A stretch of 7,330 bases of DNA, taken from positions 1 through 7,330 of the IMG/VR virus record IMGVR_UViG_2585427734_000003. The stretch is one strand, 5' to 3'. This DNA is from a virus (Monodnaviria; Loebvirae; Hofneiviricota; Faserviricetes; Tubulavirales; Inoviridae). Of the stretch, positions 4,758 through 4,985 are shown piece after piece; positions within the stretch are counted from its first letter, which is position 1, and every line of letters begins with the position of its first letter. Below the pieces are notes generated by a model, which saw only the letters and a program-made list of their open reading frames with translations, did not search any database and had not been told where the DNA came from. Position numbers and translations under genes: made by a program.

Positions 4758-4985
4758 TTAAGCATTTCGTATTAACTTAATAATCAAGCTGATGCAATGT
4801 GCAAATAAATACAAAGCAACAACCGAAGTAAAAGCAACCCCCCAATATTGAGCAAACAATGAATAATCAATATCAGAGAGTTGCTGGTATGGAACCTCAG
4901 AGAAAGTTAACTTAACTTCCTTACAATCACCGCTCTGTTTAGTGTCACAAATGGAGGCAATAATAACTTTATCATGAGATTCCAT
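4758..4985 (-). CDS. Small protein in the gene VII / gene IX position, 75 aa, with a hydrophilic Cys-containing N-half and a hydrophobic C-half
   Basis: Starts 6 nt after the gene V stop with no Shine-Dalgarno, as for Ff gVII (translational coupling), and starts with ME like M13 pVII. The C-terminal 35 aa (DIDYSLFAQYWGVAFTSVVALYLFAHCISLIIKLIRNA) resemble pVII/pIX-type small hydrophobic virion proteins. No separate gIX-like ORF with an ATG was found in any frame before gVIII. Confidence 0.5.
   Translation of the reverse strand: MESHDKVIIASICDTKQSGDCKEVKLTFSEVPYQQLSDIDYSLFAQYWGVAFTSVVALYLFAHCISLIIKLIRNA

Follow-up and report, generated by a model that had tools for sequence, protein, structure and literature searches.

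In the Ff filamentous phages, about five copies of the small protein pIX lie at the leading 'round' tip of the virion, and the C-terminus of pIX contacts the packaging signal. Phages If1 and IKe carry the classical pair of tiny genes, gVII (32 aa) and gIX (32-33 aa), between gV and gVIII, which bears out the expectation of two such genes in this slot set out in an earlier sequence-only reading of the DNA considered here. What the leading tip consists of in filamentous phages other than Ff is a recognized gap. The DNA in question (the window, meaning the whole stretch that was analysed) comprises the 7,330 nucleotides at positions 1 to 7,330 of IMG/VR virus record IMGVR_UViG_2585427734_000003. 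This Ff-like inovirus genome (7.3 kb, 36% G+C) is essentially complete and has all of its morphogenetic genes on the minus strand. Between gV and gVIII it has one open reading frame (ORF) of 75 codons, ORF75 (4758-4985, minus strand), and past gVIII a microgene of 27 codons, ORF27 (4394-4477, minus strand). The reading favoured here, held with moderate confidence, is that the ORF75 product acts at full length as a single-pass inner-membrane protein and most likely ends up as a minor component of the virion at its leading tip, in the slot and probably the role of Ff pIX, with the ORF27 peptide as its probable pVII-like partner.

A single selected gene between gV and gVIII

ORF75 fills the whole interval between gV and gVIII. 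Its ATG (4983-4985) lies 6 nt beyond the gV stop codon (TGA, 4992-4994), and its own stop codon (TAA, 4758-4760) lies 13 nt ahead of the gVIII ATG (4742-4744), with coordinates and spacers exactly as first read from the sequence. The gene is real and is under selection over its full length. Close relatives, 87-99% identical and with an unchanged gene order, are present on two ENA contigs and in two IMG/VR genomes. In four close relatives the length of 75 codons is unchanged. Among these four, the ratio of non-synonymous to synonymous polymorphism (pN/pS) is 0.27 in the frame of ORF75 and about 1.05 in the other two frames. Within frame 0 the ratio is 0.33 for codons 1-42 and 0.18 for codons 43-75.

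The family is already catalogued as an unnamed PHROG, phrog_3679, which ORF75 matches from end to end (E = 9e-16, residues 2-75 on profile positions 2-88 of 88). The halves taken alone match the same profile at E = 2.7e-11 (C-terminal) and 5e-3 (N-terminal). An exhaustive HMMER scan of 1.8e9 cluster representatives returned 19 matches at E <= 0.001, of which 17 are small proteins (65-114 aa) that were retrieved and aligned, and a profile search gathered 47 clusters. The clusters of the family are all labelled 'hypothetical' except for a single 'Inovirus G7P' label, which could not be reproduced; the Pfam model Inovirus_G7P_1 (PF17091) matched neither ORF75 nor any of 10 relatives at E <= 10, including P0055, the protein that bears the name. 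The invariant or nearly invariant residues are C13, C21, D40, W48, F52 and L58, and family members range from 64 to 121 aa. A first scan of genome contigs with an ORF75 pattern gave no match, and two tblastn matches (MT836366 and MT835677) proved spurious, falling inside a 424-aa ATPase gene.

Every intact relative examined has an ORF75 homologue in the gV-gVIII slot, located -4 to +40 nt downstream of the ssDNA-binding gene and directly upstream of gVIII. The hosts are Enterobacterales, Pasteurellaceae and some Burkholderiales. The adjacency of ORF75 and gVIII persists even in relatives whose gV or gII is unrelated in type. When L012/L073, L013 and L015/L074 are set beside the window, all are seen to share the block ORF75-gVIII-ORF27-gIII, while their ssDNA-binding genes fall into at least three unrelated types and their gII genes into two. 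The retention of this block behind upstream genes of differing types points to modular exchange at the gV/ORF75 boundary.

Architecture of the ORF75 product

AlphaFold2, supplied with a 46-sequence alignment, predicts two strands (residues 6-13 and 21-28) followed by a single helix (41-74); the predicted local distance difference test score is 83-94 in the helix and 59-67 in the N-terminal part. Codons 1-28 form a predicted β-hairpin in which C13 (4947-4949) and C21 (4923-4925) flank the turn, codons 29-40 form a linker, and codons 41-74 (4764-4865) form the long helix with its basic tail, IIKLIRNA. The net charge of the N-terminal part is zero or negative in all 45 family members (mean -3), and 44 of the 45 have exactly two cysteines there. 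The tail carries a charge of +1 or +2 in every member, and +2 in the window. The N-half is hydrophilic, as the sequence-only reading had it, but it contains only two of the three cysteines that were assigned to it, the third (C64) being in the hydrophobic helix. The protein begins MESHDK, with no hydrophobic leader and no signal peptide, and there is no recognizable Shine-Dalgarno (SD)-like motif for its start. Its polarity, acidic at the N-terminus and basic at the C-terminus, is shared by all Ff capsid helices, whose positive C-termini face the DNA (PMC10175506). A sequence search of the PDB gave spurious WD40 matches only, and Foldseek gave nothing below E = 5.

It had been suggested that the 75-codon gene is a fused or extended tip protein, or else that it is read from an internal start. 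Fusion, with gVII and gIX joined into one frame, is suggested by the slot and by simple arithmetic, as 75 aa is close to 33 + 32 plus a linker. Two hydrophobic helices would then be expected, however, and the product has one, with residues 1-40 hydrophilic and predicted to be β-structure; moreover, the length variation of the family lies wholly in the N-terminal part. Comparison of family profiles, made here and below with hhalign, finds no similarity to Ff pVII (E = 0.16-0.24). The Pfam model Inovirus_G7P_2 (PF19978) does not match ORF75 at E <= 10, while pVII controls from M13, IKe and If1 score 1e-17 to 1e-21. Fusion is accordingly a very improbable origin.

Internal initiation would yield a functional 33-aa peptide from an in-frame TTG, with the N-half either dispensable or a separate product. 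The TTG is indeed present at codon 43 (4857-4859), the 33-aa C-terminal product reads as originally quoted, and this product matches pIX in size and hydrophobicity. However, codon 43 encodes Thr in L004 and Ile in L005, relatives that are 91-92% identical, and the corresponding column of the family alignment is variable. No conserved start codon occurs near the beginning of the helix, no SD-like motif stands ahead of the TTG, and the N-half is under purifying selection (pN/pS 0.33), with its cysteine pair kept in 44 of 45 members. Hence a start at the TTG is scarcely credible. The single helix, the unconserved TTG and the selected N-half together lead to rejection of both fusion and internal initiation; what stands of the original proposal is the extended tip protein, as the best account of the position and physico-chemistry of ORF75.

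The accompanying statement that no second ATG-initiated ORF exists in any frame was incorrect. One of 22 aa lies inside ORF75 and one of 26 aa at 4677-4757, directly after the ORF75 stop; both are in alternative frames, occur in the nearest relatives only (for the 26-aa ORF, the window and L004-type relatives) and show no selection. An alternative-frame ORF of 28 aa that starts at a TTG in the helix region (4784-4870) was also discarded, as all of its substitutions are non-synonymous and it is missing in several relatives.

Resemblance to Ff pIX and to the major coat protein

The pIX proteins of Ff, IKe and If1 share with ORF75 a gene directly upstream of gVIII, the lack of a signal peptide, a single helix and a positive C-terminus. 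They differ in length (32 aa for Ff pIX and 75 aa for ORF75), ORF75 adding a conserved β-hairpin ectodomain with a putative disulfide, and there is no gVII upstream of ORF75. What follows gV directly is the 75-aa gene with its hydrophilic N-half, in place of the hydrophobic pVII of about 33 aa found in Ff. The profile of Ff pIX shows a weak similarity over the helix (E = 0.005-0.011, 23 columns, probability 4-7%), with no significant sequence homology. Hidden Markov models (HMMs) of Ff pVII and pIX found nothing in 43 loci or in the six frames of the window, and ORF75 matched neither the pVII PHROGs (phrog_7781 and phrog_19107) nor the pIX PHROGs (phrog_10143 and phrog_28333). The best pVII-HMM score of the window (E = 0.046) belongs to a minus-strand ORF of 27 aa at 6677-6760, which was rejected because it is antisense to a conserved gene; it is kept only where the DNA is 96-100% identical. 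The N-terminus of f1 pIX faces outward and tolerates fusions (PMC10175506), which makes an N-terminal ectodomain on ORF75 sterically plausible.

The best of all profile matches is to the gVIII product of the same clade (E = 4.1e-5, 39 columns, probability 70%). This is stronger than a yardstick comparison between two gVIII families, that of the ORF75 clade and that of Pf (E = 1.7e-4). The pVIII of the clade resembles ORF75 in having a D-x-S motif ahead of the helix (D-Y-S / D-L-S), then the helix, then a tail, for which the consensus is G.G.ILKLVRNA in ORF75 and GVRWILRMVKSA in pVIII. Nevertheless, ORF75 has no cleavable signal peptide, its helix is shorter by about 10 residues, it has the added N-terminal hairpin, and its gene context suggests weak translation; the Pfam model Phage_Coat_B (PF05356) does not match ORF75 even at E = 10. 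The tails of ORF75 and pVIII are more alike within the same phage than across phages (mean BLOSUM62 score 16.1 versus 12.9), and none of 5000 permutations reached the observed value, in a comparison that does not control for phylogeny. In Dulem virus 53, for example, the ORF75 homologue ends ...GGRILRFFR and pVIII ends ...GRYILGFFKRV. On this sequence evidence the ORF75 helix may be read as pVIII-like, one that would have to fit the same lattice and the same DNA contact. Such a helix could have arisen either by descent from a duplicate of gVIII or by convergence.

The same resemblance raises the question of whether ORF75 is a second pVIII-like subunit, placed along the filament or in a short collar and decorating it with hairpins, and not a five-copy cap. 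The best profile match is after all the major coat protein, and the gene belongs to the gV-gVIII transcription unit, upstream of the terminator. This arrangement of ORF75 is nonetheless improbable: the gene has no signal peptide and no recognizable SD and starts 6 nt after the gV stop, an arrangement like that of the poorly translated, coupling-dependent gVII of Ff, and an ectodomain of 40 residues on each subunit would be hard to fit to the pVIII lattice.

A parallel in the Pf phages

Pf phages have a gene comparable to ORF75, called orf83 in Pf1 and PA0722 in Pf4 (phrog_1147). Like ORF75, it encodes about 80 aa, lies between the ssDNA-binding gene block and gVIII, and has two conserved cysteines in the N-terminal part and a C-terminal helix. 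Its tail, LLRKAK, mimics the Pf pVIII tail, MLRKA, just as the ORF75 tail mimics that of its own pVIII. The profiles align at equivalent positions (E = 3.3e-4, 32 columns, probability 38%). On the other hand, the two families are separate PHROGs with no PHROG cross-match, and in Pf the gene for PfsE stands upstream of orf83. HMMER scores between ORF75 and orf83 are 5-13 bits, with shuffled sequences reaching at most 7.6 and pVIII controls scoring equally high. An initial reading of the similarity as specific homology was given up, as the pVIII control shows the signal to be largely that of an inovirus coat helix and its cognate tail. To judge from these sequences, Pf orf83 is most readily regarded as a second lineage's version of the same solution. 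In the Pf literature PA0722/orf83 (83 aa) is called 'gIX' by position, as a presumed pIX.

ORF27, a hidden microgene after gVIII

The sequence-only reading had one gene in place of the two of Ff. The window does encode no Ff-type pVII or pIX, but that reading overlooked a conserved microgene 280 nt downstream. ORF27 (MILNFWYLMGFFWGLLCAWAVIKGLSL) is unannotated and is a candidate for the second small tip protein. It overlaps the start of gIII by 37 nt in a different frame. Homologous loci were sought with a degenerate DNA pattern of the core that fixes codon positions 1 and 2 of ten codons. The pattern found 40 viral_contigs stretches and 17 true genome contigs; a further match in a Planctomycete was put down to chance. 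The genome contigs come from Xenorhabdus, Lelliottia, Providencia, Arsenophonus, Kluyvera, Haemophilus, Glaesserella, Pantoea, Scandinavium, Symbiopectobacterium and a Burkholderiaceae metagenome-assembled genome. ORF27 is open from its ATG, at 24-29 codons, in all 43 viral or metagenomic loci (the window, two ENA contigs and the 40 stretches) and in all 17 genome loci.

Because the pattern fixed codon positions 1 and 2, fair tests of ORF27 lie outside the conservation that the pattern itself imposes. Two residues beyond the pattern, F at -2 and G at +11, are invariant, and third positions are near saturation (entropy 1.26 bits, versus 0.31 and 0.10). ORF27 is also present in every locus found through ORF75 alone, namely L012-L015, L073-L076 and Dulem virus 53 (in the variant form MDWQMIFFLWGMLCAYVVVRGISG). 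In these loci its pN/pS is 0.16, and that of the other frames is 0.93 and 1.9, the latter being the gIII frame. Conversely, an ORF75 homologue lies upstream of ORF27 in 42 of 42 viral loci and in 16 of 17 genome loci; L062, which has ORF27 without ORF75, was set aside as a deletion remnant in which gII is fused to the end of gVIII. The peptide has escaped annotation: PGAP does not call it in E. coli, and it is hidden beneath the gIII annotation in GenBank inoviruses. Eight ORF27 variants were all absent from a collection of 15 billion proteins, and ORF27 matched nothing in Pfam or PHROG.

Profile comparison of ORF27 with other small inovirus proteins gives weak values throughout (E = 0.044 for pVII, 0.043 for pIX, 0.013 for PfsE and 0.031 for a 25-aa ORF of Pf). 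That Pf ORF is a conserved reading frame of 25 codons lying 3-10 nt 3' of gVIII in Pf1 and five diverse Pf-like contigs. In Pf1 (L078, NC_001331) it reads VLWSVWLGAFFAGAFITGYRTGEFF and occupies 1073-1150, within an annotated 'intergenic region'; in the contigs it lies at 2031-2108 (L079), 1985-2062 (L080), 2008-2085 (L081), 2022-2099 (L082) and 772-849 (L083). The consensus is MLWSVWLGAFxAGAFITGYRxGEFF, and its pN/pS is 0.17, the other frames giving at least 2.4. It is present as well in two contigs that have no PfsE between the ssDNA-binding gene and orf83. Like ORF27, it lies between gVIII and gIII under strong purifying selection. Unlike ORF27, which is past the terminator and overlaps gIII, it precedes the terminator and has no gIII overlap. 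Because ORF27 and the Pf ORF are both selected, a tiny gene between gVIII and gIII recurs in two lineages.

The hallmarks of PfsE (PA0721, 'gVII') are a YxWGW aromatic motif, a position between the ssDNA-binding gene and orf83, and binding to PilC. Like ORF27, PfsE and the Pf 25-codon ORF are hydrophobic peptides of 25-30 aa in the structural block, but neither has significant homology with ORF27, and PfsE is encoded upstream of orf83 whereas ORF27 follows gVIII. PfsE acts in superinfection exclusion, and Pf4 deleted for pfsE still gives infective virions (PMC8764522). The dispensability of PfsE for Pf4 particles calls for caution in equating a tiny hydrophobic peptide with a structural protein. 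Dulem virus 53 (L001) has three further unannotated hydrophobic ORFs of about 26-27 codons (MREFAQMVGASFIGCSLALFTLYIMFF, MICLADDIVDFFIDCLLIGFIVYILFL and MIKFLLILFIWRLIKRFINWIKNKNE) at 3693-3984, between its DNA-binding gene and the ORF75 homologue.

ORF27 might have some function other than that of a tip partner, and could equally be an immunity peptide like PfsE, part of the pIII/pVI end of the virion, or a leader that couples translation into gIII. Substantial though less than even weight is given to this group of alternatives. ORF27 overlaps the gIII start, its W-G codons (TGGGG) form an SD-like sequence 7 nt before the gIII ATG, and its C-A-W-A-V aligns to the Y-A-W-G-W of PfsE (50% identity over 20 columns, E = 0.013), a protein that Pf4 can do without in forming particles. 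Yet the peptide is strongly selected over its whole length (pN/pS 0.16), and a pure coupling ORF would need no conserved peptide. In addition, the core is invariant across hosts whose phages have very different gIII receptor domains, as would be expected if its partner were a conserved phage protein more than if its target were a variable one in the host.

A model for the leading tip

In the favoured reading, ORF75 would be translated 6 nt after the gV stop without an SD. According to Ivey-Hoyle and Steege, Ff gVII is reportedly poorly translated and dependent on coupling, and the similar arrangement of ORF75 makes a low copy number plausible. The acidic N-terminal part would pass to the periplasm, where the Cys pair would be oxidised, leaving the basic tail in the cytoplasm. 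When assembly begins, the ORF75 tails would bind DNA and the helices would pack with the first layers of pVIII, as f1 pIX does (PMC10175506). The hairpins would then be displayed as a crown on the tip, and ORF27 would be the best candidate for an inner, pVII-like bundle. From the properties described above we infer that the ORF75 product spans the membrane in this orientation, forms the disulfide, is part of the virion, lies at its tip and has ORF27 as its partner.

Several points weigh against this model. The virion location of the ORF75 and ORF27 products is a prediction from their genes. The profile similarity of ORF75 to Ff pIX is weak and there is none to pVII, and its similarities to pVIII and Pf orf83 come from one amphipathic or hydrophobic helix, for which convergence is easy; the HMMER scores with Pf orf83 are no higher than those of pVIII itself. 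Translocation of a 45-residue N-terminal tail without a signal peptide would be unusual. As for ORF27, its C-terminus is not consistently basic, part of its loci were found by a pattern that fixes two positions in each of ten codons, and it adjoins gIII, so that its place may be at the opposite end of the particle, or it may be non-structural. The nearest small Pf protein, PfsE, is a superinfection-exclusion factor without which Pf4 remains infective (PMC8764522).

The principal alternative for ORF75 is an accessory, membrane-anchored periplasmic protein that is not part of the virion, the tip being built from pVIII, from ORF27 or from both. Its proposed roles are superinfection exclusion, interference with a receptor or pilus, or assembly chaperoning, like PfsE in Pf. 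A small Pf protein of the same gene block does have such a role (PMC8764522), the N-terminal part of ORF75 varies in sequence and length as a host-interaction surface might, and the family is without functional annotation. An accessory role is nevertheless unlikely, in that the structural block always includes the gene even though the replication and gV modules have been exchanged, its helix is pVIII-like, and its basic, DNA-type tail tracks the cognate pVIII tail. Also, the HMM scans of the 43 loci and the window turned up no other candidate for the essential pIX/pVII function.

Gene map and other features of the window

The remaining phage genes, all on the minus strand, were assigned with Pfam and PHROG. 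gII lies at 5278-6462 and is followed by gV (4992-5264), which encodes an ssDNA-binding protein of 90 aa from its ATG (Pfam Phage_DNA_bind, 1e-23) with about 52% identity to both M13 pV and IKe pV. Beyond ORF75, gVIII (4514-4744) encodes a major coat protein precursor of 76 aa (phrog_2186, 8e-25; Pfam Phage_Coat_B, 1e-4). Next is a GC-rich hairpin with a T-run (4484-4502), terminator-like and 6 nt ahead of the ORF27 ATG, the equivalent of which is also found in relatives. The likely start of gIII (2958-4430; phrog_3942, 1.5e-82) is the ATG at 4428-4430 (MRLGSNQR..., with a signal peptide), which is inside ORF27 and is kept in all relatives. gVI (2649-2942), gI (1613-2656) and gIV (426-1616) complete the series. 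Searches of GenBank and INPHARED found no close relative at the DNA level, the sole match being a 50-nt stretch of the If1 intergenic region, and an Rfam search of the window gave no match.

The stretch in question, about 50 nt at 6737-6792, matches the major intergenic region of If1 at 96% identity, has short hairpins inside it, and is also kept in the otherwise diverged relatives L004, L005, L017 and L056. It is probably the origin recognized by the gII product. Two plus-strand genes diverge from the phage operon and may be regulators: one at 6493-6726 encodes a 77-aa protein (phrog_2503, E = 1e-27, function not annotated), and the other at 6749-7246 is a reading frame of at most 165 aa that could be assigned to no family. 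The non-coding DNA at 1-430, 3' of gIV, has a G+C content that by eye is far above the 36% genome average, and an inverted repeat (381-395/408-422) adjoining the gIV stop is a candidate terminator or packaging signal.

The segment from 7250 to 7330 continuing into 1-11 contains two inverted dif-like sequences, GTTCGCATAATGACGTTATGTGTAAAA and the reverse complement of TTTTCAACATAACGTGTAACAC+ATTATGCGCAC, which flank a perfect 14-bp GC-rich hairpin (7274-7312). This arrangement resembles the folded attP of the CTXphi type that is used by XerCD. In a related E. coli element (L077), tandem copies lie beside hipA, near dif, and the same strain has a 7.4-kb plasmid record with related sequence. E. 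coli A37 (NZ_CP195776) is one strain with an element of this clade, its 7.4-kb replicative form being recorded as NZ_CP195780.

Comparison with known systems

A tentative extension of these results is that a large part of the Inoviridae builds its assembly-initiating tip from a module unlike that of M13, consisting of a pVIII-derived subunit that displays a disulfide-stapled hairpin and a post-gVIII micro-protein of 24-27 residues that has escaped every gene caller. The module would range, with the same tentativeness, over phages and prophages of Enterobacterales and Pasteurellaceae whose gII, gV, gI and gIV are otherwise Ff-like, and more distantly over Pf. If so, the hairpin crown would be nature's own equivalent of pIX display, and could touch the secretin gate or host surfaces. 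If, as suggested here, a tip subunit can derive from the major coat protein by divergence of a copy and bring its own N-terminal display domain, this has a bearing on phage-display engineering and on the first engagement of the secretin. At a practical level, ORF75 and ORF27 provide two precisely mapped candidates for a clade that counts dif-integrated prophages of E. coli among its members. The evidence is that in at least two inovirus lineages a micro-gene under strong selection is systematically overlooked by annotation, and the absence of gVII and gIX from an inovirus annotation should not be taken to imply that small tip proteins are absent.

Three things are new here: the rejection of the fusion and internal-start readings of ORF75, the pVIII-like helix and tail of its product, and the unannotated micro-gene with its parallel in Pf. 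In comparison with the systems already described, ORF75 and ORF27 are judged to be a variant inovirus tip module, and not a new kind of system.

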